A stretch of 64,000 nucleotides of DNA from an uncultured Planctomycetales bacterium. Lineage in GTDB: Bacteria; Omnitrophota; Gorgyraeia; Zapsychrales; JANLHA01. The stretch is from contig CAYJXI010000001.1 of assembly GCA_964374105.1 (NCBI GenBank), positions 7,743 to 71,742 on the forward strand. The letters run 5' to 3'. Position 1 is the first letter of the stretch, and each line of letters starts with the position of its first letter. The position numbers and the translations under genes are program-made. Below, in pieces: positions 2 through 27,600 of this stretch. Under the pieces are notes generated by a model. The model did not search any database and was not told where the DNA came from. It worked only from the letters and a program-made list of their open reading frames with translations.

Positions 2-660
2 GGGAAGGTCGCTGTGGAGACTGCCGTCATCATCGCCGGGCTAATGCTGGTCAACAAACATCTGCACAATAGATATGCTTTACAATTCATTTCGCTCGCC
101 GCCTTGACGCTGGCCATCTCCTTGATCCTGCACGGCGGTAATGTGATAATTCAGTTTGGTCAATTTGGGGATGTGTTGATTTGGAGAGTCCTTTCCGTCT
201 TTACCGGCACATTGATTTCCAGCCTGCTTTATGAGAAAGACAAGACTTTAGGTCAAAAGATTCTCTCCTCAATCCGCTGGACAGCGGCCATCAGCATTTT
301 GAGCGGGTACTACTTGTACTTTACATTTATTCCGTTCATTGGCGAGAGCTTCTCTGTGGAACGTTTCGGGGCAATCGCTTCCTACCTCAAATCGGCCTTC
401 GACCTGACGATCGGAAGTTTATTAACGATTCCGTTACAGGTCGCCTTTGGCGCGGCTTTGGGTGAGAAAAAGAATATTGTGACCCAGTGGGAAGAATTCA
501 AGACAACCGTCATAACGATTTATCCCATCAACTTCCTCTTCTGGTATCCGATGATGGTCATTGGTTGGTCCTTGTTCCCGGATGCATTCATTTTCAAGAA
601 TTATCATGCGGTTTTGGTGACCTTCTGGATGGGCATCCTTTCCCGCATTGTTAAGGTGTC
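2..660 (+). other. Cluster of ~6-7 predicted transmembrane helices
   Basis: Hydrophobic stretches such as VAVETAVIIAGLMLV, LQFISLAALTLAISLIL, VLIWRVLSVFTGTLISSLL, AAISILSGYYLYFTFIPFIG, ITIYPINFLFWYPMMVIGWSLF, AVLVTFWMGIL. Confidence 0.6.
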
Positions 661-3600: not shown

Positions 3601-6600
3601 CAGCGAATACAACATTCATCGATTACTGAACCTCAATCCGGATCAGAGAATTGAACTCATTGTCCTCTACAGCAGTGAAACAAAGACAAGGGCAGAATTC
3701 ATTGTAAGAAGCCTCTTAGAAGGGGCAAGACAATATAACTTTGGTGTCAATCCCCATCACCAGATTCATTTGGCGATGGTGCCGGTGGGGACATTTGGTA
3801 AAGAGGAGTTGACTGACGAGGTGCTGGCGAAGATGGTTGAAAAAGAATCCCTCCCCACCGATACATTCAAGATCACCTCATCTGTCATTCTCAAAGATTA
3901 TGCCCTCGAGGCCCATTCGGTTCAATATCGTCAGGGCAATCGTATGTTGGTCAGAAAAGTCGTGGATGATTTTGCCAAGGCCAAAGGCTATTACGGTTAT
4001 CCCAAAGAACGAAATGACAAGTCACAAGTTAACGGTACGATTCAACCGGAAAATCTGTCTGACGGACAGACAGGCCTTCCTTATCCCGCCATCCTTCCAA
4101 CAAGCAATGAACCTGATAGATCACCAATAAAAGAAGAATTAGAAACAATCCTCCCTGCCCTTGGCGGGCAAAAGGCCTTGGCCAAAAAGGGCCTAAGGAT
4201 GACAGATGATAATATCGTGATCAGCCCATCCTTAGCCGCACCGGCGGAGGTCAAGAACCGCATCCTCTTTGTCAATCCCAACATCCTGCGCGGCCCGCCG
4301 GTAGAGTTAAGAATTATCTTCGAAGGCCACGAACTCTTCCATCTCTTGGGCCATGACGAACAAGAAGCCCGCCGCCTGACCATTCGCTATCTTAAAGTTC
4401 ATAAACTTTTAGTTAGCCATATTGGATTCTTGGAGAACAACCGATTAGGCTTGATTGCCGACAAGGCATGGATTGACATATTGAAACAAACAGCGCAAAA
4501 GTCGATCGCCGTCATTCAAACGAATAGGCACGTCTCTGCCATTTATAACCGTTTCTTCGCCTCATTCCTAGAGTCGCCTTTTGCTCTCATTGTCGGACTT
4601 GTTTCCGGCCTTGTCATTCCCTATGGCATGACGTTCACTATGAGAAGGGTGTTTAGCAGTAAAAACGTATTTATGTGGGTTGCCGAGGGATTGGCTATTT
4701 TGACGTTTATTGCCTTGAATCTTTTCATCGTGTATTTGGTTAGTGCCAGCCTCTTTGATTTCATTCAAAACAAATTGCATAAGAAAATCTACAGCAAATA
4801 CGAGTCGAAATTCGATTTGGTAAGGGAGGGAATCACTTTGATGGCCTTGACCAGTGGCCTGTTGTTGACCATTGAGATTTTATACGGTGTACCTTTCTGG
4901 TTCTTAATTCTCACGGGTGTTTGGGGAATCCCGGTACTCATCTGGCAGCACCGCCGCGTTCTCTTGGAAATTATCAAGCAGGAAACGCCTCTAAGTCCGG
5001 TTCCTGCCCGCAGTCAAATCAAAGGCTTTGATTTAATTGAGCTTGTCATCGAAGATTTGCAAAACAAGAGAATCAGCGAAGAAGGGGCGGTGGAAGAACT
5101 GATGAGGATTGGCAGGGAGTTTGGCAAAGATGATCAAACCGTATGGGGTATGATTTCCATCCTGATGTTCGACCGTGGTTATCAGGTTGACTCGGAGTCG
5201 GTGCATTTGGCGGCGGTCAAGATTTTGGCCGGTCGCTTAACACCCGTGGCTAAAGAGGAAAGACAAGAGACGTTGATCATCCGCGGGCTCATCTCCGGAT
5301 ATCTCTTGAGTCCTTACATCAGCGTTCCTATGGCCATTGCCATGGCCTTAAATGCGATTCAAGACGATGAACTCATTAAGCAGGCGGTCAGGGAGGAGAA
5401 CGAAATCAAGAATATCGCTCGTCCCCCGCAGCATCGCTGGTTGATAAAGTTGAAAGAGAAGTTGATTCAGATTATCGATACCGGGTCGCAAGGGGTGAGG
5501 ACTTCCTTTGAATTATCCCAGGCCGTTCGGCTATTGGGATTAGTCGGTGAGCTTTTACGGTCAGTGAATTTGGCTGAGCCAGCGGGCGAGGTTCTATTAC
5601 AGCTAAAAGAATACCGCACCACAACGGCTGTCCGTTTAGGAAACGATTTTACGCAGAGCTTAGAACGGGAAATTCAAAAGTTGTCTGCTGAAAATTCACA
5701 AAAGAGGGAAGAGGCAGGCGACACCTATCCCGCCACCATGCCGGTAAGCAATGAACCTGATCGGGCGCCGACTCAGAAAGAGTTCGAACAGATTATTGCC
5801 TCGCTGGGCGGGCAAAAGGCCTTGGTCGAGAAGGGCATTACGATGGTTGTCAGCCATATCGTGATCAGCCCCTCCTTAGCCGCGCCGGCCGAGGTCAAGA
5901 ACGGCATCCTCTTTGTCAACCTCAACATCCTGCGCGGCCCGCCGTCCCAGAATCAAAAATCAAAAGAAGAATATGAGAAACAACTTAAAGTCATCTTCGA
6001 AGGCCACGAACTCTTCCATCTCTTAGGTCACAATGAAGCAGAAGCCCGCGACCTCACCGTTCAGTATCTTTTGACCCATTATCGGTTAACAGAGCATATC
6101 GAATTCCTAAAGAACAATAACCTTGGTTTGGTAGCCGAACAATCCTGGTTGTCTTTATTAGAGAAGGCCGTTTCTTATCCGAACCGCTCATTTGTCAACA
6201 AACTTATTGTTGTCTTAGTGTGGAGCTTACTGGGAGCAGGATTAATTGTGGGAGTTTACTTAACTGGTTATCTGAATTGGTACATTGCCTTGAAGCAATC
6301 TTTATTAGGGAAGACATTGTTGAGTTTACCTGTGGCTGGTTTGGATATATTAACCGGGGCTATCATCTGGGGAGTTGCTGATATCATCGGTCAATACTTA
6401 GCCAAACAAACATCCCGTATTGATTGGAGACAGACAGCCTTAGTGGCAGTGTTTGGTATTCTGGGTGGACTCGGAACACATATTCTGCTCAATATTCCTG
6501 ACGCCTTGTTGCCTGTCTTACAAAACAAATTACTTAATCAAATCTTCCGTGCCTTCGTGGTTCTTGTGGGTGGTTTGGCCTTAACGCTTGTGTTTACGAA

Positions 6601-9600
6601 GGCGGAATCACTCGCGCGAAAGCTCTTCCATATCGAAACCTTTCAAGTGAGAACAGAGAGGCTTAAGACAGCGGATGTGTTGTTTGTGAAACTGCTTTTG
6701 GCTCCATTAAAAACATTTGTGGTGATCAATCTCCTGCCTGTTGCCGCAAGAGTTATTGCCGAACAACTCTGGGATTACTTTATGACAATGTTTTCCGCTT
6801 ATTTTATGAATCGTGATCGGTCAATACTCTTAGAACCAATTAACAAATTTATTCAATCATTTTTGAAGGAAAGAAATGAATCCAAAGGAAATCAACCCGC
6901 ACCTTACCTGCCTACCAAGGAACAAAAGGCCAAATACGAAGGCAGGGTTTATTCCGGCAAAGTGGTTGTTGAGGGTAAGGAAGTTAAAATTGTCAAACAA
7001 ACCGGCGTTCGACTCAATGTCCAACAGAAGAAGGCCTTGAAGGATCTCTACGCGGTTGTTCCTTACTTAGCCCAGGCACCGCCGGTGGTCGTGACCTCGG
7101 ATTTTGGTAAGACCGAAGGGTCGATTACCGCTTACAATCCTGCCGAAGGCATTCTCTACATTCACCTCTTTGTGCTCGATAAACTCGTTGAATTCGCCAA
7201 AGGTGACAGTCACCAAAAGGTGACAGTCACCTTTGTAAACTTCCTCAGAGGCGTCATCGAAGGTCATGAACGATTCCATGTTGAGGGTGCCAACGAAGCA
7301 GATGCCCGCCTAAAAACGATTGAATATCTTCAGGGGAATTTGGAAGTCTTACAGGCGACTAGGCAAATCCTTTCCTATCCAGATATCTTTGGAATCACAG
7401 CCGAGTCCCAGTTCGCTAAAATCCTCAATCAAGAAAAAGAATTCTTCAACGTAACAAGAAAAGAAGATGTTGAAACACAACCAACAGAATCTGGCCTTCA
7501 AGAGGAAGACTTAAGATCCCTTGATCAAATCACTGGCTTACGAGTTCGGATAGCGCATACGGTGACACCTTACGCGGCCAAATATCGTCAAGAATCCATG
7601 GAGCAGAGAAGGCGTCTCACCGGCCAGATGACCTATGATGAATTATTCTTCAACAAGATCTTACCCAGATTTATTGAACGCTATATCCGATACATCTCCT
7701 CTGATCAGCCGCAAGGCCTCATTGATATGCTTCTTATTTCCGGTGAGGGTGGTGGTGGCAAGTCTAGTATTACCGAAGAATTTGTCAGCAAGACAGGGGA
7801 GGTCATAGAGGACTTAAGTCTCAAACTTGGCAAGCCGTTAAGACAGATTATCCTTGCGATTATTTTTGATGATTATATTTTGCAAAAGAGCGACCGTGTG
7901 ATTGATCCCAAGACCCGAAAGACTACAGAGAATCCGCTTTTGAAATTCCAAGTTGAACGCTTTGTCAGTGATATGAAGAAGCTCCTGGAAGGCAAGACGA
8001 TCTATAAACCAATCTTTGATTCATTGACAAGGGGTCGAATCAAGATCGGGCTTGACAAAAATGATCGTCTGGCGGTTATTGCCGGTGGCCATTCAGTTCC
8101 CATTGAGATGGATGCGGCATCCGGCCAACCCTTTATCGTAGTGGAAAAATTGAAAGTCTCAGAGTTTACTTTGGGTAAAACAGCGATTTCTGTGTCGGCC
8201 AACCCAGCCGGCGGAATCCTCCTTAAGATAAGAAATACAGCTCATCACCTGACAAGAGATAAAGATCAAAATTGGGTCTTACACGTTCCGCAGAAAGGTG
8301 AGGTTGCGGTCTCTGATCAACCCATCGAGGCTTGGGAAGAGATCAATCCCAATGGCAAGATTATTATCGTGGAAGGGATATTGACCTTGTTTGATGAGAA
8401 TTTAGCGAAAGATGAAAGGGTGATCTCGATGTTTGTGGATGCCCATTTTGAGGCCAGGCTCCTCAGGATGCTGATTCGCTTCCAGGCTGAGGCTGCGGCG
8501 CGTGGGGAATCGGCCGCGGAATTTGAAGCAAGACGGAGATTGCTCAGATTGGAGGAAGAGGTTCCTTATATTTTACCGACCCGCCAAAACGCCCAATACA
8601 TTGTCACAAGCTTAAGCCGTTCTGAGATGATTTATGTTCTCTACTTACGGGGGAGATTGTTTAGTTCTCTTAAAGAGGTAAGAAGAACGATAACAGAACT
8701 GAAGATCAATCCGGTTGAATTGATCCGCCGTTTGAATAGGATTCCTAGAATAGTCATCATGGAAAGATTAGCCGGGACCAATAATATTATTCATCACATC
8801 CAAGGGACTTCCTTTGTGACCTTCTATGGCGAGGAATCCGGCCAGATTGTTTACAAGGCACCTCGGGAGAACTTTAAGAATTACTTTGAAACGAAGTTTA
8901 TTGAGTTTTATCGAACGGTCTTAAAGAAACGGCTGGGAGGCCTCATGGTGCCGAGTGGACTATTCAATCTTAAGACAATGGGATTAGAAATTTATCGCAG
9001 TATTGACAAGAGGCTGGTTCGATTGAGTAAGGTCCTTATCCAGAATCGAGTTGAAACATTAAAGGAGAGATTGAATAAACTGATTAAAGAAGGAGAAATC
9101 GAGAAGGCTAAGAGATGGATTGATCAATACTTTGAGATCCAAAAAGCCCTTTGGAGTGTTGGAGTCATCGATATGGATCCTAAGATGCTTGAGAAGTATG
9201 GGATTATGGTCATGGAGGATGGGCGAGAAAAGGTGGTTGTTATTGGCATTGATCGATTGTTTGCTACTCAAGAACGATTCGAGCGGGCCGTTTATCTCAA
9301 AGAGGGAGTCCGACCAAGTCAACAGGATCTTCCGAAAGAATTCGTGGATTATTACGATCAAAAGGTCGATGAGGAGATCCCTGATTTTGAGGGATTCCTC
9401 AAGATTTTTGGAAGCAGGATCCCTGAAGCCCACGGGGTGGCTAACATCGCTGATACAGAGATTCGTAGAAAACAAATGGAAACAATCGTCAAAGAAGTCA
9501 TAACCGCCACGATGTTCAGACTGGGTCAATTCTTAAACCAGATGATGAGAGAAAACAAGGAGGTTGTTGATTTTCCGTTTATCTATTGGCTGGCCCTTTA

Positions 9601-12600
9601 TCGCGAAACCATTCATACTTACGCGACTTTGCAGTACACATTGGTTGACCATGTCTATCAGCGGGTTATCAATGATCAAGAGGTTTACCGAAGATTGAGG
9701 GACCTCAGCCAAAAGAAAGATCGATTTGAGGACTTTAATCAAGAGATCATTAAACTCGTTCATGAGGTGGTCAAGGAACTGAAATTAGGGATCACAAAGC
9801 GTGAGATTTACAATATCGCGGAAGATCTCTTCAGCTACGAAACGTATATGAGAAGAGAAAAAGGCCGCACTGATTCTGGAGCGAACCCCGCCCCATTTGA
9901 ACCAACACAAGACGAGAAGTCTAGGTATGAACCTTTAAGATTTTCCATGAAAGTCATTGATGGGGAAAAAGGCGAGGTCTCAGTTATAGAAGACGTTGTC
10001 CGATATTGGACACAAAAACATGCGGATGTCTTAAAAGACCTTTATGAACGAGTCGCTTATCTCGCCTTGGCTCCACCGGTTATTATTACCTCTGACTTTG
10101 ATAAGACAAGAGGTTCAATTGCCGCCTATAATTCCGCCGAAGGTGTCCTCTATATTCATCTTTTTGTCTTCGATAAGCTGGTTTCCATTAAGCATCTCAA
10201 CCTTATCGGTCGGTTTGGTCAACTCAATCATGAATATAAATCCGCCTTCTTAATGTTTTTAAAAGGAGTTATTGAAGGCCACGAGCGGTTCCATATCGAG
10301 GGCATTTTAGACGAAGGGTTAACCCGGCAAAAGACCATTCAATATCTCAGTCAATGGGAACATCGAGAGGTTCTTTTGGCCACTCGTCAAATTTTAATGG
10401 CTAAGAATATCTTTGGTGTTGAGACACAGGAAGATTTCTTTGTTACTATTCATGAGCTGGATGATTTCAGCCTTACCCGTCTGACGATTTTCGATAGTAC
10501 TCTAAGCGACTCCATCCACTGGGATTTCAGTCTGGAACTCCTGGCACAGAGAGAAGGCATCCCGGTTACCCATCTTAAGCAGAGGCTTAATGGCAAGACC
10601 ATAATGCTGGTTGGTATTAATAGTAACAGCATGATTGTTAACTTGGCGCGTCTATTGCCAGCGAGCTCAATCATTGTTGTCAACCCCGACAGCTCAATTA
10701 TTTCTGGTGAGGTCGCAAACGTCCGGTATATTCATGATGGCGTTGAAAACATCGCCCGGTACTCAGTTAACGGGGTTGATCTCATCTTCTCCTCCGGGCT
10801 CTTTAATGAGGATTATCCCGGGATCAAGCCGCAGCAATATCCGGCCTTTGCAAAGGCTATGAAGGAAAGTCTTGCTGCTAAGGGACTCATGCTCATTGGC
10901 ACTGGTCTTACGGGTAATGAAGTATTTGAGAAAGTTTTACGGACAGAAGATTTATTCGTAGAAAAATTATCTGAGATAGGAAGCTGGATATATCTGGTTA
11001 CAAAGCAAGATACAAGTGACAGTCACTCCCGCCAAGGCGGGATGACTGTCCTGCCTGCCGGCAGGCAGGTCACTTCTGGAACTCGAGTGGCATTTAAATT
11101 TATTAAAGGGCTGTTGCAGGCTTCGCTTGCTGTCATGCATGTTTTGGGGCAAGCGGTTCAACCAATGCGTCACCTACCGTGGCTGGTGAGGCGCATTGTC
11201 AAGAGTTATTCTGTAACAGCCCTTCCATCTATATTTAAGTTCTTAGCCAAGATGGCGGGTGTATTAGCCATACAAATAGTTGGCATGGGCGGCGGGAATA
11301 TCGGGGTGGTTTTGGTTATTACCACGCTGACATTCATTGTGCTTTGGGGAGGCTATAAAATTTCCAAGAATGTTAAACAATTCGTTGATCAGGAACGCCA
11401 ATACTTAACCAGACTCAAAGAATTGGCTGAAAGACTGAAAGAAATTGGTCAACGGATTCCTGAACTGGAAGAAAAAGCCAAGCGATTGTCCCCGGAAGCC
11501 CGAGATGCGGTGAAACAAGGACAGGAGAAAGTCTTAGCGGCCGTTGCCGGCGATCATTTTGAAGAGGCGTATGAGCTTCTTGAGCATTTATGGCAGACAA
11601 TCGAAGGTTATATGAACAATCTCATCGGCATTCCGGATGAATTGAAATATTTATTAAAGGAGCAGGAAGCGATTAACCAAAAAGGCAAGGCTATTGAGAA
11701 ACAACTTGTTTCCTTACGTAGCAGGGTTTCACGGTTCGTTGAATTCCTCTCTAGTCGCCTCCATAAACAACTGCGCCAGGAAGAGTCTGACCTTATTGTC
11801 AGCTGTTGTTATGCAACACTAACTTTTGATTTCGCGGTCCATGAAGCGGAATATCAAGCCGAAAGTACTTTGCGTGATATGACCTATGTTTTGAATTATC
11901 TTATCAGCGAATACACCCATGTCTTGAGAGAGAAAATGGAAGAAAGGAATGAGGTCGCTGTACTTTCCCCTGAGCAGATTGCACTCTATCACGAGCAGTA
12001 TATCGAGAAAAATATAAGACCAAAGATTGCCAGAGAAATCACGAGAGAAAAAATCAGTCCACAGAAGATTGACCAGCTTTTGGCCTATTTGAATGAATCG
12101 GCCGATCATATGGTCGAGGTTATGCCTCGAGGGGCGCCGGAAGAGGTACTTAAGAAAGCCAAAGAATTAAAGGCCAAGAGGAGCGCCATAGACAATTACA
12201 CATTAGAGGAAATTGCCCGAAGATTCGATTTCTGTAAGGCCTGCGCCCCCAATCAGGTTTATGGAAGGATCATCGCGGCGTCAGAACGGGTGGGTCAGTT
12301 TGAGAGAATTGTTCGCTTCAACCAGAGACTCTATGACTTAAGCGAAAAGATTGAATATATCGGCACAAAGGTCGGTGTTGATGTAAACCTTAAGCGTGGT
12401 TTTTCCAATCTTGAGCATACCTTCGGTTTGACGTCACCCCTGGAAGGCCTGGCCCGAGAAATTCTTTCCATAGATGATATTAAGCGCTGGAGGATTGTCA
12501 GAGACAGCGAACTGGCCAAGAAACGTTTTGGCGGGGAATTTTTAAGTCAAGTCAACGAGGCTTTGTTTAAGTTAATTGTCCATGACATCTTTGCCGAATC

Positions 12601-15600
12601 CGGCCACGATTCCTGGGAAAAGACCGCACGGGTAAGCCACTTGGGCGATTTACAGCATCCGGAGAGTATCGGTGCGTTATATTTGGTTTCCCTGCAGGGC
12701 GGGCACACCGCGGCCCACGCCATGGGGGTGTTATATGACCTATTAAGGGATGAGGAGTTCTTAAAAGTCCTGCCGGTGGCCATAAAAGAAAAGGTTCAGC
12801 CTTTGATCGATCGTTTTGCTCAAGCCGAACCGTTAGACCATTTTGACTTCTATACGATTGGCTGGAAGTATTTTGGTCTTGCCGAGGCGGCAGTTGTGCA
12901 GGGCTTAAGAAGCGATGACGCTAACTACCGTAAGCAGGCGATCGGCGCGGCTGAGGTTGCCCCGTATGAAGCTGATCTGCCTGAGCTCTTGAGTGAGGTT
13001 CGACGTCTTTTAAAGGAAGGATATGTTACCGATTTGACAAGATTCTTAGAGGATCGGATGGCTTCTCCCGTGGGTCCTGTGGTTGACATTGTTCGTCATT
13101 ATGTTCGTGATCAAAATGAGTTTAATGTCCATATTAGGCAGATCATTGAGATTGTGGCCTCGGCGGTCAACCGCTTCCGGGACACGCTCGAAAATCATCC
13201 CGAGATTCATAAGATGCACTTGGAAGAAAAACCAGACTATGTTGGTGTCATTGAGGAAAGAGAACAATTACAGAAAGAGTTAAACAAATATGTACCAGCT
13301 GTCATCAATCTTACTCCAGAACAGGCAGTGGTCCTTGATTTATCTTATGAGGAGGTTATGAAGACAACCGCTTCACTTCTTGTTTTGGGCAACGATGAGC
13401 GCTGCCGCAGTTGTCTTTTCGCCAACCTTGAATCAGGGGACTTATTTAAGAAAGAGGCCGCGGCCAAGGCGGTTGTGATGCCCCATAACCGAAAGATTGT
13501 TGGGCCAAAGGCCATGCTCCCGATCTTGAGAATTAAAGGTCAGACACAGGATCTTGAATTAGAGGGAGATATCCGTCTCTATCTGTCTGATGTCATCGAA
13601 GAGAACGAAGATTTTGCTCAAGAAGCAAGGCGTTATCTTAAAGAGACATATTTTGCCGGTTATCCGCCAGTGGCTGGATTTATCAATGCACTTGAAAATA
13701 GAAAGGCCTTAGTGAGGATCCTCGATGTCTTAGAAACGATGGGCGCGGAATCGTTCGTACAAATGGCTCTCAACCAAGAGAGGCTGGTGGAATGGTTGAG
13801 TCAGCAACTGGATTTATGGCTCGGGTTAATGGAGTTCAACACGATTTTGGGTGTCGTTTTGGGTAAGGAGGCGGCCTTAAATATCATTGAAGATATTATC
13901 AATGATATGAGGACATTTGCCGTTACCAGCTTGAAAGAAGTTCCTTATCGTCTGTTTATTATCCGTGAAGACAGACCGAATTTCTTTGTCTCGCTCATTG
14001 ACTATATCAGGGTGAGATTAACCCCGCGTAATCAAATAGTCGTGTTAAGAGAGCTAGGCCGATCGGCAGAGATGGTGATTAACATGGATACGACACCTGA
14101 TCAGCAGATTGTTCGCCAGAACTTTCATTTGGCGATTGTTATTTCTAAGATGTCAGCTTTGGCGTTTGGTGCCCAGTTTGTAGTGAATAGTGTCAAGGAG
14201 GCCACCGAACCCTTAGAGCGCTTGTTTGGTAAGGATGAAAAAGCCTCTCTGGTTGAATTACTGAAGGTCCTGCGTGAGATCCTGGAGAGATTGGATAAGG
14301 GAATCTATGCGGCTATCAATGAATTCATAGCCGATGTCCAAAGAGCGGTAGAGATTAGAGATGGTCTGTTGAAAGCCATTCAAGAATTACCCGCTGTGCG
14401 TGCGGCCCAGCAGCGCCGCAAGACCCTCGGCCAAGAGATCGGTCAACTGCGTAAGAGAATGAAAGAATTAAAAGAAGAAGGCCAGAAGCAAGAGTTAGAA
14501 AAGCAAATGGCTGGTTTGATTGACGAGCAGCGTTCCCATCAGGAAATTACCGATCAAGTAAATGCTGTCAATAAGGCTATAGATTTGACTTACCTTAGTT
14601 CTTTGAGTAATCAGCTGAAACAGAAATCTTCGTCGCTCGCCCAACAGGTTGAAAAAGAAGGTGTCTTAAGCATTAAGGGACGATTAGAGCAATATTTTGA
14701 ACTCTATCAAACCGAGGTCTTATTAAAAGAGTTGAGGGACGTCAATAGAAAGGTCATTACAACCTTCTTAAGTGAAGGGCAAGCAATACCTGTTGAATTA
14801 CCAAAAGATTATATCATCACCAATGAACTGAATAATCTGATTTTTGGCGCTTACCGGGCCAGAGAGGCCGAGGTCATTAGAGGAATCGTCCGGCCGATGG
14901 TGTGGACTTATATCTTTGAAGGACCGGCGGCCGTAGCAGAAAAGCTTTATTCACCACAAACCTTGGCACAACTTAAGGCTCTGGGTTATCAGAATCCGGA
15001 AGTCCTCAAAGAAGGATTAAGGATAAGAGGCGAGGTTGAGCCACCGGCTGATTTGTTGGCCGTCCGTCAGCACCGTTTGAATCTGGAAAAAGAAGAACTC
15101 CGTACACTTTTTGCCCAACTGCCGGTAGAGCTTGTCGAGTTGGCGAAAGAGGCTGGTGTAGAACTGGCTGAAGGCGAGGGAGTGGATCACTTTGCCCAGT
15201 TAGAGAGTGGTAGCTTGGAAAAGATTTATGCGGTTCTTAAGCCGTCAGAATTTACCGATTCTTACCAAGATGTCTTAGCTGATATTGAGACCCATATCGA
15301 GGCCATGAAACGCATCGAGGCAGAAATCGGTACGGCCACAGAAACCCGGCAGCCAGTGGATGTTATCGTTAGCAGCGATGTGGTGGAGAAGGTTAACATG
15401 GGTGTTGGGTTTGCTTCGTGTCTGTGCGTCTTAACCGGCGGCAACCGCCACAGCGCCTTTGTCAATGCCTTTGAACCCAATAAACTGGTCTTTTATGCAG
15501 TCAATAATAAGGGAACAAGGATCGGCCGGCTCTTAGTGATTCTCACCGATCAAGGATTGCTTGTCCACCGCGAATATAAGAGCACCACCTTGAATCTGGG

Positions 15601-18600
15601 ACCGGTCTGGTTTGAATTACTTACTCTCTTGGCGCAGAGATTGGGCAAGCAGGTATTGATCCCTGTTAAGGTGGCAGGCATGATCTTTGGTATAACAGAA
15701 AGTTTACAGGCTCAGCATATTCGGCCAATTGAATTGCCTGCTGAATTAAGCGTACTGCGTGTAGAGATGTTTAGATTTCCATCCAGGCTCTGGTATGACG
15801 ATCTTGGATTTACAAAGATTGATCTAGCTCAATCGTTTGAGCTGGAAGTATCCGGACAATTCTATATCTTCCCAGCGAAAAGGGATGATCAGCGCGAAGA
15901 TAATCCTGTGACTCCTGAGCCCACCGCCACAAGGTCGGGTGAACCGCTTTCAACAGAACAAGAAGACAAACTTCGGGAATACCTTAAACTCAAGGTAGGG
16001 CAGTTCAGCAGTTATGCGGACATTAAGGTAGACCAGATTGAGGCAACCATCAAGGCCTTGCGTGAGGCGGGCTTGAAAGCCTTGGCGAAGCGGCTGGAAG
16101 AACTCAAAGAAGCTCGTAAAATCCGCGCTGGGCCCAATGATGTTTTTGAGGAATTAAAGAATTTCGGCATTGATCTCTTGGCCTTCAACTTTAAAGACTG
16201 GATCATCATCCATCCGGAATTAGTAGAAACCCCCCATCGCATTCGCTTGCATCAAATCCTCACCCATGAGACAGCAGCAGTCCTTGGCTTCTCACATAAG
16301 ATTAACCTCATGTTTGAGAAGGTCATCACCAAAGAATTCACACAACAAGAACCAGGGTTTATTGATTTAGGTGAAAGAGAAAAGGTGTCTATCCCCGTTT
16401 CTGTAGTTGACAAAGTCGAGACTATCACTTTTAGAACTCAACCAGTTGGTTATCAAATCAAGAACAGACAGGTCATTCGGTTAGAGAATAGATTAAACCC
16501 GGATTTTGCATTGGCAAAATCCGCCCGAAGGGCCGCTACGGCATCCCGCCATGGCGGGACGCCTAGCGGGGTTAACCCCGCCAAAGGCGGCCGAAGGCAA
16601 AATTTGCAAAGCACTTTTCTGTATAGAAACAATCAACGAGGTCAAAGTCCTATTGCAAATTTTGGGTTAAAAGGCGATATGGCTAATGCTGTTCTCGGCA
16701 GAGGCAAGGGAGTCACTTTGTGGGAGGGCGGGGCTATCCAATGCAATTATTGTGTAATTTGGGATAGTTCAAGACGACAAGGGGCGATCATCCACACGAA
16801 TTATCTCCAATCCAAAGACATGATGGTGTCTTTCTTGAGAAATATTTTAGAGATATTAGGAATTCCATTAGAGGATAAGAGCTATTTAAGAGATCACGTT
16901 TTGACAATGATAGCTAATGCTCCTCACCAATCGGTCTTTGTCAGTGAGATGTCAAAGAGAATCGAAACCGTGCTGGCTGACAGCTTGGATGAATTAGGAT
17001 TGCCTCGGCTTAGGACGGATACCAGCGTTGCCTGGTATGTTACTCATATTCAATTTTTCGTAGATAAAGGAATAATACGATCAAGCTATAAGATTAACGA
17101 AAGGCAATTTTATCAAGTGGACTTAAAAGAATTGTCTAGATTGCGAAAAATGGGAAAAATGGGGACTGTCCCCATTTTTGAAGCCTCCGCGCCAATCTTC
17201 CGTGCCCTGCCTGCCGGCATAACAGGACCGCTTGAAGCCTTCGCTCCAATCTCCCGTGGCTCCCTGTACCACGTAGGGTACAGGGCCATGAACCCAACGT
17301 GGTTCATGGGGGTCATGAGAATTGTTTCCCAAACGACAGCGGCCCTTTTAAAATCTTCCGTGGCAGGCCCCGTAGAGAAACTTTACGGGGCAGGGAGGTC
17401 GCCGCAGATACCACTTGCACAAATCAAGGGACCGGTTATGCCTCACCATCCGTGGCAGGTGACGAGCATTCACCAGGGCCCATCTGCGGCGGCCTCTTCT
17501 TATCACAAGTCACAAGACATCCTTCGACTTCGCTTGGGACAAGCAAGTCAGCCCGCCCTGGTCTTCGCAACTGGCGGGCCAGGGAGGTCAGCCCGCCCCG
17601 GTCTTCGCAACTGGCGGGCCGGGGAGGTCAGCCCGCCCCGGTCTTCGCAACTGGCGGGCCGGGGAAGTCAGAAGACCCAAGATTCAGGACGCACAACGCA
17701 GAACACAGAACCCAAGACTCTGAACTCATTTGCACCTATCGTGATTGTGGGTTTAGGGATTGCAACGGTTGTCATCATCATGACGATCAAGGCTAAGAAT
17801 CGACTCATGAAGATAACCAAAGACTTTTTAAGTATTGCGACATTGATGGCCGTTGTTGGAAGTCTTTGGACGATTTGGATAAATCGTGAAAAAGAAGTTG
17901 AAGTGATTCCAAATACTCTTGATTCCCTCCCCCTTGTGGGGAGGGTTAGGGAGGGGGTGAGGTTACAGTCTTCACCCTCCCCTAGCCCCTCCCATCAATG
18001 GAGGGGAAATACAGGATTGGGAGAACAGGACGATTCAGCAAGAATTGTTTCGAGTGTCGGCCCAGAATTCTACAGAAGTGTCAGTGCCATACTCAACAAT
18101 TGGTTAGAGGAGAGAATGAAATATATTGTGATTGAATTAGCACCCAGAATGAGTCAAGAACAAACACGGAACCTCTTTCATCTCCTGAGGGCCATGCAGG
18201 AGGTCACAGAAACAAGTGGCTTGAATACACCTCTGCTGGGTGTAGATCGTATGGCCGTTGGCTTCCACGAAAGTGATCGTTTCAAAGCGAATCGTCAGTA
18301 TCGAGGGCCTGCCCGCGGGTGGCTGCAGGTGGAGAAGAATACCATTAAGCATGTGGTGGAAAATTTAATGCCTCGATATCCAACTCTTATTCCCATCGTT
18401 GTGAAAGAAGCCGCAGATTATCATAAGAGGGCAATGACCTTTAAAGATATTCAAAGATTAACGCCAGATGAACTCGGGGTGTTAGTCAGACAAAGGATTA
18501 AATTTGATGTGGCGGTTCATCTTGCTTACTTTATAGAGGAAATGAGTTTAGGTGTCAGGAGGTTAGCCACTCAACATGGTCTTCTCTTGGATCGAGAAAA

Positions 18601-21600
18601 TATTCCTGATTTCGAGGAAGGGTTGATCGAACGAGAAATCCGACAGTTAGTTAATGATAGCAACAATCCGCAAATCATAGACAAGATCTTGGAGGAAATG
18701 ACTAACCTGTGGCTTAACCAATGGAATCGAAAGCCGGGCGTCTTACAAAATCGGATTAATGAACAATCTCGATTGTCTCAAGAGATCCCATCTCTCAAAG
18801 AGAAGTTGGCAGATACGTTGAAAGACAAAAAAGATTTATTGATGCTTCGACCAGGCTCAGCATCAATCCTGAGCGAAGTCGAAGGATTGAGACTCTTTAA
18901 GACTCAAGCAACAAGCCCGAAAGAATTCTTATCATTCGCTGAACAGTTAATTCAACTGACTAAGGCTTCGGATGAACGTATTTCCCAATTACCCAGTGCG
19001 ATTAAGAAAGCCATCCGAACGATCATTAAAAAGGAAGAACGATTGAGCGAATTACCTGCCGAAATGGAAGAACTGAGAACCGAGATTAAGGCCTCCCAAG
19101 AGAAGTTTAGAAAAGAGATGAATGAACTTAAGCCGATCTTTAGATACATCTACATCGCGATGAGATTGCAGGTGATTTACAGCAAAGCTGTCCTTGCCTT
19201 GGAGAAGGATTCTCATCAATCCAATGCTACAAGCCAGGAGAAAAAGTCAGATAGCATCATTAGAGAAAAAATAAAATCTCAACCTAAGCCAGTTACAAAG
19301 AAAACCAATCGAAAAGGAAGATCATCCCTGAAGGCCATAAGTGAGGTTTATGGTCTAGTGCTTGTCGTAGGGCTTGTGATTTTAGGTGTGATAGAGCTCA
19401 TGCGACAAATCCAAGAGTCGCAATGGACCTTGGGTGAGCGGTTAAGACAAGTTCATCAAACAATAAAGAGACTCTTGCCTTTCCGTTGGATGGAAGTTGC
19501 AGGTTCAGGTGGCCTTTCTTTCCCGATGTTTATGGAAGGTATTTTAAACAGAGGAATAGGTGATAATCCATTTTTGATTCATGGCCGAGATGAACGATTA
19601 ATGCTGCCGGTATTTGAACAAATGGCGGATGCGCTTGAAGAACAATTGCTGGTAGCAAGTACAGATTTTCAATATTTGATTCACATTGTACAGAATGGGA
19701 AGAATAAAGAGAACCGTTTAAGGGCCTTAAAGACCTTGATTAAGATCCTGCTTGATCCCAACAAAGAACCTGCTTTGTTAAAGGCTGAGGGTCATCTCAA
19801 TGATAATGACAAACAAGCCTTAATCTCCACAAGGATTCATCAGGCCCTCTTTACTGTTATCAATACTGAAACTGATAAGGAAATTCAAAGATTGGCTTTG
19901 GAGGCGTGGGTTATTAATTCAATTGAATTGCTTGTGGAAAATCGTCATCAGGGGGATTCAGGGATTGTTCTCAATAGAATGTTACGCGAGGTCCTTGCCT
20001 TGAAGGTCGCCCGTTCTCAACAAGCCAATCTTGTCATGGAAGTCCTTGATGCCAAGATAAAACAATCCCCAGATAAGGACTCTCAAGAAGTTATTGAAAT
20101 GATGGATTGGCTAGAGAAGATCATCGAAAGAATCGATGATCTAGAAGAAGATGATGATATTGAATATCGAGGGTCATCGGGACTTAAGGCTTTTGGAACT
20201 GTCAGTATGATCATCCTTTTGGTGGGTTTAGGGACAATTTGGATTTACAAGAAATTTGCCCAAAACAAACACCCGGTGTTTGGCGGTGAACAAAACATAA
20301 GAGGTGAAGAAGTTTCTCGGAGAAAGGTATTCAAATGGATAGGATTAACCGCGGTAGCCATTGTTCTCAACTGCACAGGATGTTCACTAATCTGGCCACC
20401 CAAAGCACAGGATTTTGTACTTGTTAATTATGCGGTTGAGCCTCTCAACTGGGCTAAGATTACGGGGGATGCCCGAGTTGTCTTTTTGGGAGAGACCGAG
20501 CACTTTTCTTCAACCGATAAATATCTTGTTGCCAGATCTCTCAAAGAATTGAAGACATTAGGAATCACCCATTTGGCTCTGGAGAATTTGGAAGTTCATA
20601 CTCAGGATATTGTTGATGCGTATTTAAGAAAGGAAATTCCGTTATCCGAAATGGAGGAAAGGATCAGATCAAACCGGCTCCAAAGACCTAATGGGGAAAT
20701 TGTTTTACCGGCGATTTATCTGCCAGGATACAGAGAGATCTTCCAAAATGCCCAAGCATTAGGGATTAAAGTCATTGCCTTAGATAAACCTAAATATGAA
20801 GAACACACTATCCGGGAGCGTAATCTTCAGTGGGTAGAAATTATTTTGTCTATCCTTAAGAATGACAATAAGGCCAGGCTTTTAGTCATTAACGGCAATG
20901 CCCATTCGAATTATCAATATAGATTCCTAAGAAGAACAAACGCCTTTTATGCCATCCCCCAAGAGTTAACGCCAGTTGTCCCCGAGGCCATTCAAAACGA
21001 AGGCTTCCCAGTGGTCGTAACACAAATGGCAGGTATTGACGGCTCGGACCTCCCAAGCTATAGACATCTTATTATTGAGGCGGTAAAGAGATATGCTCAA
21101 GATGATAAGCGAGTAAAACTTGACCAGCCGCAGATGATGATTCCCCGCGAAGGGTTTGTTGATGAAATTTGCGATTGTTACATTTACGCCCCAGCCGTAA
21201 CGACTCTTAAAGCCTTTGACCCGGTGATCGGTTTGATTATGTTCCTTGGTATTGCCGGGTTGAGTTTATTGAAGAGGTCAAAGGTGAGGTCAAAGGTGAC
21301 TGTCACCTTTGGTGACAGTCACCTTTGGGCAAGGCGCTCGTTCCTAAGGACAGTCTTCGGGCTAGGGACAGCTTTAGGATTAATGCCATTTGCTCCAAAG
21401 AAAGCTCACGCAGAATTAACCGTTGATCAAAACCTGCCACCTGATCTGCGCCAGTTGTTTGAAATGGTAATCCCGATCGCACAAATCATGTTGACTAGGG
21501 AAATAAAAACAGAGGACCAGGAACTTAAAGAGCTCTCGAGAATTTCCCATCGATTCCTCTTAGAACCCGGCGTCAAGGTGACCTTTACCGTAGGTGATCT

Positions 21601-24600
21601 TAACCAAATCATCGCTAGTCAATCGAAAAACGAAGACGATGAGTATAGAAGAGAACTCATGAACCGACCCGATGCTGCCGCGCGGGCCATGGTGACCAGC
21701 TTAGGGGCCAATCGTTATGTTGTGACCTACGACTTTAGGATGATCAAGGCAGGGATGGCAGCCTTGATTACCGGGCTTGCTCATGAACTTATTGCTCACA
21801 CTTATATCATGGAGAATATGAAAGAAAAATTATCACCTCTGGAAGAGGAGAGACTCGCTTTTGCTTTGGAGATCAAATATATTGAGGTGCTGTTAGCCGA
21901 CCGCGATCTGGTTGAACAGATTACCTTGGGCGGCAGGAATTTAACGATCTACAACGATTTTAGAAATCTATTGGAATTTGAAAAAGCCACCCTGGCTTGG
22001 ATTGAAAAGGAAATAAAACAACAGAAGGCCGCGCAATTAAAGAAGACAATCGCCATCATTGGTGCAACAGCACTGACAGCGGGAGCAGGCGTCTTAGGGA
22101 CTTTACAGGTCATCAAGTTAAGAAGATTCAAGCGCGTTCGTCTCGTCTTTGATGCAATCAAGGGTCAAGGGGCATTTGCTCAATTGGATAAGCTTTTACG
22201 AAAACAATTAGTCGCCCAGTTTACAAAAGGTAATCGTTTCGAACGTGCGACCTTAAAGCAGGCCGGGCTGTCCACAACCCAGAGAGAAGAATTTAAAAAG
22301 AATTTATCCCGGATGATGAGTGAAGAGGAGGAAGACGAAGGGAATGAAGGCGGAGTGATGCTGGGAAGCGGGAGAGGCTTAAGTGCAGTGCAGGAGAAGA
22401 TGGTGAATCAGGCGCTGGTAGAGAGCGAGGTGAAGGAGGTCAGTGAGGAGGAGTACCGAACATTGGATGCGGGAGGCGAACTAAAGTCCGAAGGGGTGGT
22501 GATCCATAAGGTGAGCGGGTTGAATGCGAAGATCGAAGAGATCGGGCAAAGAGAACATACGATGTTTGGGGATGAGGTGGTGACGTATGCGAAGGTGAAG
22601 GAAGATGGGAGCAAGCATTTGTACTTGGATGAGCGGGAGATGTATGTGGTGATGAATCTGAGTGAGAGGTTAAGGAGGCAGTGGGGAAGTCATGAGTTAT
22701 TGCACTTAAAGCAGCCGATGCTGAGTGAAGAGCTGGTGCAGTTGCAGGTGCCAGTGGATGAGGTGTTAGAGGCGAGGGCGAAGTATCTGGGGTATGAGAC
22801 AGGAGAGGTGAAGGCCTTGGCTATAGTGAGGAAGGAAGGGGTGAAGGAGAAGGAAGTGAGTAGTGCGATGGCGGTGGCGAAGGAATATGGGGTAGTGCCA
22901 TCAAAGGTATTGGCGTTATCGAAGAAGCATGGACTGCCGGTGGTATTGACGGGCGAGGCGATGGGGCTTGCACAGAGGTATAAGACGACGATGAGTCAAG
23001 TAGCGTTGTGGGGCAAGAAGTATGTGGGGATTTTGAATAAGGCGGGGTTGAGCCGGGAAGAGATCGATGAGATCTGGCGGACGTTAGGGTATGAGCAGAA
23101 GGAAGAGGTGTTAGATGCGATCGAGAAGATATTAGAGATTCATCAGGAGATCGAAGAGAGTGAAGTAAAGTTTTCGATGAGTGTGATAGAGCTGGTGCGA
23201 GCGTATCGGGTGGTAGGGGATATGGATGAGCTGCGGGAGCTGGTGCGGATTGCGATCGAGCATCCGATGAGCGGGCGGGGATATGGGCAGGTAAAGCAGC
23301 GGTTCCCCGAGTATGCGAGATTTAAGAAGCTCTTGGAGATATGGGAGGAGTATGTGGAAGCGGGTCATCCGATCAGTGCCGAGATCATAGAACAGATGTT
23401 TGATAAGAAAGGGCGATCGCGGTGGGTGAGTGAGGAGGAGGAAGGTGAGGAAGAGGAATGGCATGAGGGCGGGGTGATGCTGGGAAGCGGGAGAGGCTTA
23501 AGTGCAGTGCAGGAGAAGATGGTGATGCAGGCGCTGGTAGAGAGCGAGGTGAAAGAGGTCAGTGAAGAGGAGTATGCTGCGTTGGATGTGGGAGGAGAGT
23601 TGAAGTCCGAAGGAGTGGTGATCCATAAGGTGAGCGGGTTGAATGCGAAGATCGAAGAGGTTGCCCAAAGGGAATGGACATCGTTTGGAGATCGGTTGAT
23701 CACGTATGCAAGAGTAGAAAAGGATGGCAGTAAGCACCTGTACCTGGATGAACGAGAACTGAACGTGATTATGTATTTACCATCCCGCATCCGTCAGCAA
23801 TGGGGCAAACATGAAATGGGTCATCTTAATCAACCATCTTTACCTGAAGAAAGGATACAGAAGGACGCTCCCATTGAGGAAGTCCTTAATTCACTAATCC
23901 ATCCAACTGAACCTATTGTCAAAGTATATGATGAACTCGGCGGGTTGAAGATATCAAGGAAAGATCAACTCTTTAAAGATAAAGAAGGAAAGAAGAGGCC
24001 GTATACCCGCAAGGGCCAGGTGTTACACACCTTCCATCTTGCTGTCCAAGAAGATTTGAAAGCAGTTATTGATCAGAAGATTCTACCTGCTCTCACTACA
24101 AAGAAAGCAAAAGCGAAGATAGAAGAAAATCTTCAGCTGATATTTAGACAGACCGGGGAATTTGGGAATATTAAAACGATCAGTATTTCCAACGGGATGT
24201 TGACCCCACTTTTCTTTGAAGAAGACCGCACTTACGTAGATGTGAGCCTGTTATTGATGCCTTCCGCTCCCTTTAAGGAATTATTGAGATTGGGTTCTGC
24301 CCATGCCTTTGAGAAGAGCCGAATATATCGGGTTCAGACGAGTAAAGGAAGCTTTATTGATGAGTATAAGGCCGATAGTGTGAGTGTGTTTGAAGTGGCT
24401 TTAAGTCTTCTAGCGGCGGATGAAAAAGTGCTTAAGCAACTGGAAGAGGCATTCAAGAATTTAAGCAAAGCTAATTGGGAACTTTCAGTTTATCAAGAGC
24501 TTATCGATGCCCTGCGGTATTTAAGAAGCCGCTTTGTCGTACAAAAGTATTTGTTAAAGGCACATAACATTTATGACATTTACGATTGGGAAATAGATCC

Positions 24601-27600
24601 ATTTCGGGATCGGTATGTGTTGAGTCAACAAAGAAAAGAGATATTAACCCGGGCGATCAAACTAAGAGAATCCTTACGAGATATTGTCGTAAGAAGAAAG
24701 AACATTATTTTGAGATTATTAGCCAATGATCCAAGATACATTGAAAAGAACAAAGAGAAAGAGAAAAAGAAAGAAAAAGAAAAGCGAAAAGCCATCAAAG
24801 AGCTTGCCCGCAGGAAATTCCTCTTACCCAGAAAAGCCGAGGTTGACCGGATAGCTCATCTGTGGGAAAGGCCGTATGAACAAATCGGCCAGGCCTTGAT
24901 TTCCTCAAGAAATCATCATTACTTGCAAATTATCCGATTAGTGCCCGCAGAGTTCATGCGGCTTTTGGGCATTCTTATCGATGCACGTTCTTTATCCAGT
25001 CATCTTCTTAAGAGCGGTTATACAAGGAAAGAGTTAAGCCAAGGATTTGGGATCTTCTTTAACCAAGTTGGAACAAGTCATGTCTCCATTGAAAGTCGGT
25101 ATAACGAGATGATGGCAGCCCTCATTTTATATCGCGGGGCTTTTAGCGAAGATCTCTTTAAGGAAATCTTTGCCCAACTGGAGGTTGCCGAAAGAAAGCA
25201 ATTGACGTCTTATTTAGGAGAACAGGTTTCGCGGGTCATTAACTATGAGAGAACTTATATGGGAATCATCAAATATCTTGCGATGTTCCCAGGAGCAACG
25301 GTAAAAGATTTGAAGGCTCAAGGATTATTTGCGGAATTGTTCGATCTGTTTATTAAGATTCACACAATGACCGTCCAGAAAGAAGAAGTCATTGAGCTGA
25401 CAGTCAAGGAAATGCGAATCAAGGCAAAGAAAGTCTTGATGACAAGACTTCTCTCCCGTTATGGTTGGGCCTTAGGGTTATTTTTAGCTCCGGGATCAAG
25501 GGTTGATAGAAACCAAGTGATCTCTTTTATTGGATATTACAAAGAACAAATTCACAGGATTGTCGATTTTTATCTTGACGGAACATTAGTGATGGATGAA
25601 ATGGTTTTAGAATCCATCAGTCATTTATTGCCTTACCTAGCCCTGGAAGGTTATGACAAGCGATTAGGGGTGGTGAGAAAGAAAGTCAAAGATTTTGGAT
25701 CACTTGAACGATTGTTTAGCGTGCCGTTGGAGTCCCCAAGTGAAACTTTAGCTGTAGAAAGGGCAGCGGTAAAAGCCATGTTAACCGCAGGGGATGAAGA
25801 GACGTTACGAAGGGTATTTAATGACTTGAAGAACTTCTATCAGACCCAGCGTAAACCAAAAGAAATCATTGCTGATTCCGCCATCGATTATGCCTTGGCC
25901 CTTATTCAGGGGGTACAAAAACTTTTACAAAAACCTGTCACTCAAGAACAACGGCAAATGGTCGCATCGATGGTAAAGGAGATTGCCTCTCATCTGATTC
26001 ATAAAGAGTTAACGATTACTTCAATACAAACTTCCATGGAAGAAAAGGCCAAACGGATCATCACCTCCATTCAGAATCTCCCTCAAGAGATTTTAACGGA
26101 AGCGCTGAAAGTGTTGACCGATCATACCATTCTTGATTTTATATTTTTCCGTGATGAAATGGCGGTTATCCGAACCGATGTGCTTAAAGTTGTTGATGCA
26201 GAAACCTTAAGTAATTATTTTTCAACCAAGAGCGAACGGGAGGTGACTTCAAGTCTTGCTCCTATCAAAGATAATATCTTGAAAAAGAAGGTTTTGGCTG
26301 CCATGAAGGCTACAGAAGTGGGTAAGATGCCCGCGATGGCCAAACATGTTTTAAGACGGGAAATTTACCTCAGGGAGACTATTCATTTACCCAAAGAGCT
26401 GACCGCTTATTCAGGGGAGGCTGTCCCGAATTATTACGCTATCTTAGGAGTTCCCATGAAAGCCACACCTTTGATGATAGACCGATCATTCAAGGCGCTT
26501 TCCTTCTTGTATCATCCTGACCGGGCTCAACCTTCTGAGAAGGCCAAGGCCGAAGAGGAGTTCAAACGGATCAATGAGGCTTACCAAGCGCTCTCTGATC
26601 CGCAGAGAAGGAAGGAATACGATGAGAGTATACCCAAGTATGCTTACTACTATCCGTCCAAGCCATGGTTAGAGTCGGATGTGGATCTGGATGCTCTCAT
26701 AGCCGAATCCGTGGTTTCGGAAAAGAAAGAAAAAGAAACGCCAAGCGAAGGTCAATACAAAACCAGTCCGTATCTTCCAGTCCGCTTGAGTGATCTTAAA
26801 AAATGGTCGAAAGCCTTGAGTGAAGATTTAGAAAAAGAAACTGGAGAAGCAAAAGAGCCCAAGAAAAACGAACCCCAAGGTCAAGGAGGGGCGATCCTTG
26901 CTTCAGGAAAGAGTTTGAGTGCTAAACAAGACTCGATTATCCGCAGGGTATTGAAGGAAGCTGAAATTGAGGGTACCGATATCATCGCATTTCGTATCCT
27001 TATTACCGAAAGTCCATTATCTGGAATGAATGTCAGAATCCAGGCCATCAAAGATTTCAATCTTAAGATCCGCCAATTGGCTGAGGAAGAGCAAGTGCCA
27101 TTTAAGGACAGAGTCGTGACCTACGCTTATGTAGATAAGTCAGGCGTAAAATATCTCTATTTAGATAAAATGGAGAGGGAGATGATCATTCATCTTCCTA
27201 AACATTTGCGTGATCAATGGGCAGAGCATGAAATGCTGCATCTTGAAAACCCAAGATTAACGGAAGAAGCAGTGCAAAAACGAGCTCCTATTGAAGAATT
27301 CTTGCGCGCCCTCTATCCTCCCGAAGAACCTACCATTAAAGTTTATGATCAGTTGGGAGGGTTGAAAATCACAAAGGTGTCATCGACGTTTACTGATATT
27401 GAAGGTGTAACGAAGGATGTTTCCTTCAAGGGTGAGGAGATCAGCACTTATCATGTTTCCTTAAGGCCAGATGATGCGAGGCATTTAACGAGAGACTTTG
27501 AGAAGATTTTACATCGTCGAATTAATAAACCCAGTTCGGAGAAGATAGGATGGAATTTTAATTTCTTGACGGGGGAGATCAGCCGGTTTGGTGCGATAGA

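Follow-up and report, generated by a model that had tools for sequence, protein, structure and literature searches.

A tandem hairpin array in a giant reading frame

The window analysed here, a 64,000-nucleotide (nt) stretch of contig CAYJXI010000001.1 from an uncultured Planctomycetales bacterium (Omnitrophota in the GTDB lineage), is spanned by one giant open reading frame (ORF), inside which three near-identical 40-nt units, each with a G+C-rich hairpin, stand head to tail in a hairpin-dense spacer (Table 1). Read from base 2, the 64,000 nt form 21,333 codons without a single stop; the other five frames contain 893 to 1653 stops each. Pfam domains along the ORF are cytidylyltransferase-like, PRK, ChaN, DnaJ, GNAT, Rpe (ribulose-phosphate epimerase), GalE-type epimerase, PP2C and glycogen synthase/phosphorylase-like, and they are accompanied by many hydrophobic segments and internally repeated modules. 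No SecA_DEAD domain was found in the scanned parts of the ORF. In its very great length, its many transmembrane segments and its scattered sugar-metabolism, kinase and transferase domains, the ORF resembles the giant genes of Omnitrophota, of the Archaeovorin or 'multi-enzyme' class (bioRxiv 10.1101/2023.11.21.568195; 10.64898/2026.06.07.730766). A term search of both papers turned up no reference to hairpins, palindromes or spacers of intergenic appearance in ORFs. The ORF bears on two questions about giant genes in bacteria, namely whether one continuous polypeptide is made from them and how they are built.

The array is located in intergenic-looking DNA that is held open in frame. Three of the nine stretches of the ORF with the lowest codon-usage log-likelihood fall in this spacer (16433-16930, 17327-17767 and 17858-18151), and its 1.6 kb contain four of the ten strongest local folds of the window plus 16 inverted repeats. 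Between 16400 and 18100 the ORF frame is free of stops, whereas the two remaining forward frames have 36 and 26. Two word-indexed searches of the spacer and its flanks and an exhaustive HMMER search returned no protein homologue for nt ~17145-19200; HMMER gave distant matches to the two flanking modules at nt 15908-16350 and 16650-17145, one match of an 87-amino-acid (aa) fragment to nt 16485-16620, and none to the array. The spacer is shaped at the nucleotide level, by palindromic modules and non-coding codon usage, yet has zero stops where about 30 would be expected, which we read as direct sequence evidence for selection on the continuity of translation and not on the peptide.

Four perfect 8-12-bp hairpins cluster at 16485-16665. 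Translated, this segment shares 67% identity with the C-terminal end of P0020, an 87-aa ORF on a 1-kb JGI contig; there a stop closes P0020, and a response-regulator gene comes after it.

Tandem Repeats Finder reports the array as the only strong one in the window (period 40, 3.1 copies, 96% matches, score 229). Alignment of the units (17547-17586, 17587-17626 and 17627-17666) confines the mismatches to unit positions 13, 35 and 40, which bears out the preliminary description of three 40-bp units in tandem inside the ORF. Copies 2 and 3 are identical, and copy 1 has two private substitutions. A 29-nt core pattern matches these three sites only in the window (0 expected). As had been proposed, each unit is decoded in a different phase, its start falling on codon position 2, 3 or 1, and none introduces a stop. 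No phase of the unit's + strand contains a stop trinucleotide; because 59% of composition-matched shuffles are equally stop-free, this property is unremarkable alone and follows from base composition. Secondary-structure prediction folds every unit at −18 to −20 kcal/mol. Relative to dinucleotide shuffles, however, the z-scores reach only −0.9 to −1.4, and fold energy alone is no better than expected at such G+C content.

The expectation that a change in copy number would shift the frame was confirmed by simulation: with 0, 3 or 6 copies the ORF stays open, and with 1, 2, 4, 5 or 7 copies it meets a stop 55 or 128 nt past the array. Overlapping the array in a different + frame is a 165-aa ORF (17299-17796), which corresponds to the frame entered by a one-unit slip; it is probably a by-product of stop-poor, G+C-rich sequence. 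Near-identical tandem repeats can mis-assemble, and a collapsed or expanded repeat would make the array an artefact. We regard this as very improbable here, as the array is merely 125 nt long, copy 1 is marked by its own substitutions, and more than 46 kb downstream lie in the same open frame as the 17.5 kb upstream, which needs 0, 3, 6 or further multiples of three copies.

Several other identities were considered for the array. A CRISPR array was rejected, the units abutting with a constant 6-nt spacer and no unique spacers. An intrinsic terminator was rejected as well: each stem is followed by AGGTCAG and not by a U-tract, and the scan found no terminator-like site at the array. A promoter scan gave no match at the array, no tRNA or tmRNA was found, and Rfam 15 gave no match at gathering score over the whole window. 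At permissive E-values, Rfam returned for 16400-18100 only generic miRNA-type hairpin matches, sub-threshold, on a 110-nt hairpin element downstream of the array.

Table 1. The giant ORF, its hairpin-dense spacer and the repeat elements discussed in the text.
Feature	Position	Strand	Remarks
Giant ORF	2..64000	+	Runs off both window ends; multi-enzyme type; Pfam domains
Hairpin-dense, non-coding-like spacer, open in frame	16433..18151	+	From codon usage, folds and inverted repeats
Companion hairpin motif CCTTCGACTTCGCTTGGGACA	17521..17541	+	9 nt upstream of core 1
40-nt x 3.1 tandem array	17547..17671	+	Unit of 33/34-nt hairpin core plus 6/7-nt spacer (G)AGGTCA
Core copy 1, GCCCGCCCTGG-TCTTCGCAACT-GGCGGGCCAGGG	17551..17584	+	U-A variant of the covarying pair; read as QPALVFATGGPG
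Core copy 2	17591..17624	+	Read as ARPGLRNWRAGE
Core copy 3	17631..17664	+	Read as SPPRSSQLAGRG
Putative transmembrane helix FAPIVIVGLGIATVVIIMTI	17729..17788	+	~20 codons past the array; predicted by reading the translation
110-nt G/C long hairpin	17899..18008	+	Repeated at 52219-52328, 90% identity; another palindromic module dispersed among these spacers
AAGTCAC heptamer array	51455..51481	+	Flanks the 51.5-kb cores; shorter version at 17507-17519
Core copy 4	51497..51530	-	Arms exact, loop different; 52.7 bits (covariance model); ORF reading PRPANHKSRGGQ
Companion motif, second copy CCCTCGACAAGGCTCGGGACA	51568..51588	+	Just upstream of core 5
Core copy 5	51598..51631	-	2 arm mismatches; 42.9 bits (covariance model); ORF reading HPGPTEPQGGAG

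The hairpin core and its relatives

The core of the unit is 34 nt long (GCCCGCCCYGG-N11-GGCGGGCCRGGG) and occurs five times in the window, three times on the + strand in the array and twice on the - strand near 51.5 kb. An arms-only search (GCCCGCCCCGG-N11-GGCGGGCCGGGG, ≤3 mismatches) found these five copies where 0 were expected by chance, and a covariance model built later recovered the same five and no others. The five copies yield five unrelated peptides, and conservation is thus at the nucleic-acid level and not at that of the peptide. A protein-level repeat or a selected linker peptide would suit an array that lies inside an ORF and encodes 40 residues rich in Gly, Pro, Ser, Ala and Arg; it is effectively refuted, and hardly conceivable, given three different peptides from the three units, two more from the antisense copies, the lack of a protein homologue in the searches above and the non-coding-like codon usage.

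The sites at 17.5 kb and 51.5 kb have further modules in common: the companion motif (CCYTCGAC..GGGACA), AAGTCAC heptamers and, 230-700 nt downstream, the 110-nt G/C hairpin, both copies of which are read in one frame (..DSLPLVGRVREGV..SSPSPSPSHQ..). The composite of companion motif and core also occurs in two loci of Omnitrophota metagenome-assembled genomes (MAGs), L103 and L063.

Two overlapping stem registers are possible within the core. Register A pairs positions 1-7 with 23-29 and is the 7-bp GCCCGCC/GGCGGGC stem of the preliminary description; register B pairs positions 6-13 with 27-34 (CCCYGGUC/GGCCRGGG) plus CGC/GCG and gives the fold of lowest energy on the + strand. Within the arms, the search pattern leaves only core positions 9 and 31 free to vary, and this pair is CG in 94 copies, UA in 5, UG in 3 and CA in 0 (Fisher p = 6.7e-7, the copies being related to one another). 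In window copy 1, both internal differences fall on precisely these two covarying positions. The covariation supports register B, so that the stem first described exists but is overlapped by the register that the covariation favors; it fits RNA or DNA and either strand alike. The pairs of register A are invariant among copies, and RNAalifold on arm-selected copies is uninformative as to register, the arms being fixed by the search pattern.

We surveyed the family by a degenerate-arm scan of public one-genome-per-species contigs, in which exact arms are required and counts are lower bounds. The same arms are present at at least 117 public genome loci, mainly in MAGs of Candidatus Omnitrophota, 'uncultured Planctomycetales' and Anaerolineales/Chloroflexia. 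MAG CAYJTP alone accounts for ~25 copies among the matches listed; a minority of matches, in high-GC Actinobacteria, are probably due to chance. Comparison with related genomes recovers the arms but not the exact 40-nt unit, which is absent from the public genome, metagenome and viral collections scanned, so that the array has no close relative among them. The arms-only pattern has no match in viral contigs, and a subfamily pattern searched in metagenome contigs matched a single locus (L061, in menE). Across copies the arms are invariant and the loops semi-conserved (C-N-N-T-C-G-C-R-A-N-N). Papers on the human VEGF G-quadruplex were all that a literature search with the arms brought up. The hairpin family appears not to have been described previously; it is characterised by the identity of the arms across Omnitrophota, Planctomycetes-like and Chloroflexi MAGs, the two stem registers and the embedding in 7-nt repeats.

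The family is normally extragenic in Omnitrophota, Planctomycetes-like bacteria and Chloroflexi, and also settles in permissive intragenic places. In lower-GC relatives the core sits in gaps between long ORFs, without orientation bias. Three loci in MAGs labelled Planctomycetales/Planctomycetia (L005, L080 and L114) carry it within 8-kb stretches uninterrupted by stops over their whole length. One of these, L114 (CAYJTP010000002.1, ~3130-3280), has a cluster of three hairpins between GT4/GT1 glycosyltransferase and alpha/beta-hydrolase domains, including a same-orientation 34+6 tandem pair and hence the 40-nt period again. Comparison of the window protein with all fetched loci by tblastn gave a GalE match only, the other giant ORFs being otherwise dissimilar; these ORFs thus have the hairpin in common independently of their proteins, and homology of the giant genes is ruled out as its cause. 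In an ordinary menE gene (2-succinylbenzoate-CoA ligase; L118 1142-2701, identical with L061 and L119) the core lies in frame and antisense, with ~28 residues more than E. coli MenE upstream of the P-loop motif, and carries an additional 14-bp outer inverted repeat.

The surroundings of the core are also patterned. The 6 nt before it and the 6 nt after it match at 5 or more of 6 positions in 16 of 86 copies, where about one would be expected, and the flanks show a family-wide 7-nt periodicity (0.34 and 0.39 at shift 7, control 0.27). Cores often lie mid-way in locus-specific heptamer arrays, and this embedding in 7-nt direct repeats gives rise to the period seen in the window, 33 + 7 = 40, (G)AGGTCA plus hairpin. 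The heptamer arrays could stem from target-site duplication, from insertion into microsatellites or from hairpin-induced slippage. The arms are inverted but register-shifted, the abutting direct repeats are often multi-copy heptamer arrays, and the element is smaller than typical miniature inverted-repeat transposable elements.

Origin and possible roles of the array

Taken in the general sense, repetitive extragenic palindromes (REPs) are a close likeness: the array core is a 34-nt imperfect palindrome with a stem of 7-11 bp and the folding energy given above, and its family is dispersed, mostly between genes, over the loci counted (in the source genome the survey covers 64 kb). The GTAG- and CGTC-tagged REP superfamilies have an unpaired tetranucleotide at one end of the stem-loop (PMC3733652). 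Of 91 copies, no more than 3 have such a tag in their 6-nt flanks, and the window copies have none, which places the family outside these two superfamilies. With REP clusters (BIMEs) and REPINs, which RAYT transposases mobilise, it shares G+C-rich imperfect palindromes of 20-40 nt that are multi-copy and sometimes clustered, with conserved stems and variable loops. BIMEs and REPINs are, however, typically inverted pairs and extragenic, and flanking arrays of 7-nt direct repeats are not a REP feature.

Copies of REPs inside genes, and Rickettsia palindromic elements (RPEs), are documented as read through in frame, and repeat clusters encoding 43-82 residues have been reported (Di Nocera et al. 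2013, PMC3733652). The present family is alike in being short, palindromic and mostly extragenic, with some in-frame copies that add a tolerated loop or linker peptide; its in-frame cores in menE and in giant ORFs (the window, L005, L080 and L114) recall RPEs in particular. It is unlike them in that the core arms are common to several phyla and the copies are decoded in several different phases and in either orientation, and here in forming a same-orientation tandem triple in a gene of more than 64 kb, within heptamer repeats and without a tag. Rickettsia palindromic elements are ~100-150 bp long, have an RPE consensus and occur in Rickettsiales; compared with RPE-1 the 34-nt core is far shorter, differs in sequence and is hosted by PVC and Chloroflexi MAGs. 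RPEs were reportedly presented by Ogata et al. in 2000 as 'selfish DNA in protein-coding genes'. A further parallel is offered by mycobacterial interspersed repetitive units (MIRU-VNTR, the variable-number tandem repeats reportedly described by Supply et al. in 1997), tandem units of 40-100 bp in operon spacers between cistrons; there it matters that the frame continues into the flanking genes, and strains differ in copy number. In contrast to the array, MIRUs are not hairpin cores and involve stop/start overlaps instead of uninterrupted read-through, and there is no sequence relation.

On balance we lean towards a REP-like palindromic element in a translated but otherwise unconstrained spacer, most likely tripled by slippage or unequal exchange between flanking direct repeats. 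The array consists of three 34-nt G+C hairpin cores in head-to-tail order, each bounded by a 6-7-nt direct repeat. The spacer between protein modules would be read through, with selection acting on two things only, its freedom from stops and a total length divisible by three; copies would be tolerated in three phases and both orientations because G/C-only arms cannot create stops. The direct repeats A[A/G]GTCA on either side of each hairpin most likely gave rise to the triplication, by slipped-strand mispairing or by unequal exchange, and three copies would have become fixed because a total of 120 nt (40 x 3) leaves the frame intact. The residues encoded there would then form an incidental Gly/Pro/Ser/Ala/Arg-rich linker directly ahead of the putative transmembrane helix, and the element itself would be neutral or selfish. 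The earlier proposal of a mobile or slippage-generated DNA element tolerated in frame is supported in part, by the DNA-level hairpin, the dispersed family and the short bounding direct repeats.

A number of points weigh against this reading. Neither a transposase nor an empty site nor any polymorphism was found, mobility and slippage being what we infer; among the Pfam matches of the window, which cover nt 2-60001, there is no Y1 transposase domain. REP families are normally lineage-specific, and 23-nt arms identical across several phyla are odd for such a family and could reflect conserved function rather than selfish spread. Same-orientation tandem arrays are rare in the family, most copies being solitary, in a census of other genomes that is itself biased (exact arms, minimum counts and some probable chance matches in high-GC Actinobacteria). 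The heptamer arrays around the cores are not accounted for by simple target-site duplication. Finally, the passage from one copy to three needs out-of-frame intermediates, unless these were tolerated by the gene or 80 or 120 nt were gained in a single step.

A gene-fusion relic is a tentative alternative that we consider doubtful, in which a former intergenic region was captured together with its hairpins as neighboring genes fused, with no later insertion. The spacer does hold several modules of intergenic type (core, companion motif, 110-nt hairpin and a 20-nt palindrome), the last of which also adjoins the core in the intergenic locus L036. Nt 16485-16620 resemble the C-terminal end of the separate small ORF on the JGI contig, which is followed by a stop and another gene, and internal signal-peptide-like segments follow other spacers of the giant ORF. 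The identity of copies 2 and 3 argues instead for recent duplication or gene conversion within the ORF. Fusion is compatible with a REP-like element tripled in a translated spacer, and does not exclude it.

The hairpins might alternatively act as functional RNA punctuation, as barriers to 3'-5' exonucleases, RNase processing sites between modules, ribosome pauses or latent terminators active only once translation has uncoupled from transcription, with three copies strengthening the signal. REPs are known to stabilise upstream mRNA (reviewed in PMC3733652), and the conserved arms with one covarying pair, the identity of the arms across phyla and the position of hairpins at module boundaries both in the window and in L114 are all in keeping with such a role. 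Against it, both orientations occur relative to the ORF and to flanking genes, one copy lies antisense within menE, and RNA and DNA structure are indistinguishable, since the covarying positions form Watson-Crick pairs on either strand. The hairpin is moreover not followed by a U-tract, the terminator scan is blank at the array, the fold z-scores are unremarkable and no Rfam family matches, and we judge this role unlikely. A broader version, more speculative still, is that giant ORFs of Omnitrophota-like bacteria are stop-free operons whose enzyme and membrane modules are joined by translated ex-intergenic spacers, with clusters of REP-like hairpins as 'punctuation' for pausing, processing or uncoupling-sensitive termination. 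If true, a hairpin found across phyla with two registers and heptamer flanks would point to a conserved binding or processing factor. The spacer offers a concrete test object, with diagnostic peptides for proteomics and a 120-nt array for slippage and RNA-processing assays.

Contingency loci resemble the array in having a tandem repeat within an ORF whose unit is not a multiple of three, so that gain or loss of one unit shifts the frame. As a phase-variation switch, a change by one 40-nt unit would turn off the giant gene downstream of 17.7 kb and leave a truncated protein in part of the population. The unit length, the near-identical copies flanked by direct repeats and the stops reached with other copy numbers, just before or within the next putative transmembrane segment, would suit a switch of this kind. 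Known phase-variation switches, however, use 1-9-nt units in long runs, whereas here a long unit is present in merely three copies, and family members are mostly solitary and extragenic, hence the family is not specialised for switching. We find a switch quite improbable.

Other repeats and modules of the giant reading frame

Additional palindromes are read through elsewhere in the ORF. The palindrome AAAGGTGACAGTCACCTTT (core GGTGACAGTCACC) recurs at 7199-7231, 21274-21328, 45877-45911 and 51655-51668; it is read as KVTVTF, stands twice in tandem at 21.3 kb and is absent from all fetched loci. A perfect palindrome, TCCCGCCAAGGCGGGA, followed by CCTGCCTGCCGGCAGGCAGG, lies at 11013-11075, and a 32-nt perfect palindrome, AGGTAGGGGCACGGCATGCCGTGCCCCTACCT, at 33084-33115. 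The 20-nt perfect palindrome that adjoins the core in L036 belongs to this 11-kb/33.1-kb set.

Segments resembling twin-arginine or lipoprotein signal peptides (RRSFLRTVFGLGTALGLMPFAPKKAHA; RRGFIKLSLGTMGLAAFAPLLTCCS) occur in mid-ORF at ~21300-21400, ~36400-36480 and ~20300-20400. They directly follow spacers with low coding scores and resemble the N-termini of once-separate proteins. A metalloprotease-like signature, ..RGPP..(I/V)FEGHE.FH..G..E.EAR..T..YL, appears at 1061-1138, 4316-4393, 5993-6070, 7253-7330 and ~10250, usually shortly before hydrophobic stretches, and could represent an embedded processing protease. A module of ~100 aa starting with TATRSGEPL is present in four copies (15914-16222, 30410-30718, 34337-34645 and 39338-39646) with 62-72% nt identity, and a pair of 300-nt repeats, 22322-22621 and 23441-23740, is 83% identical.

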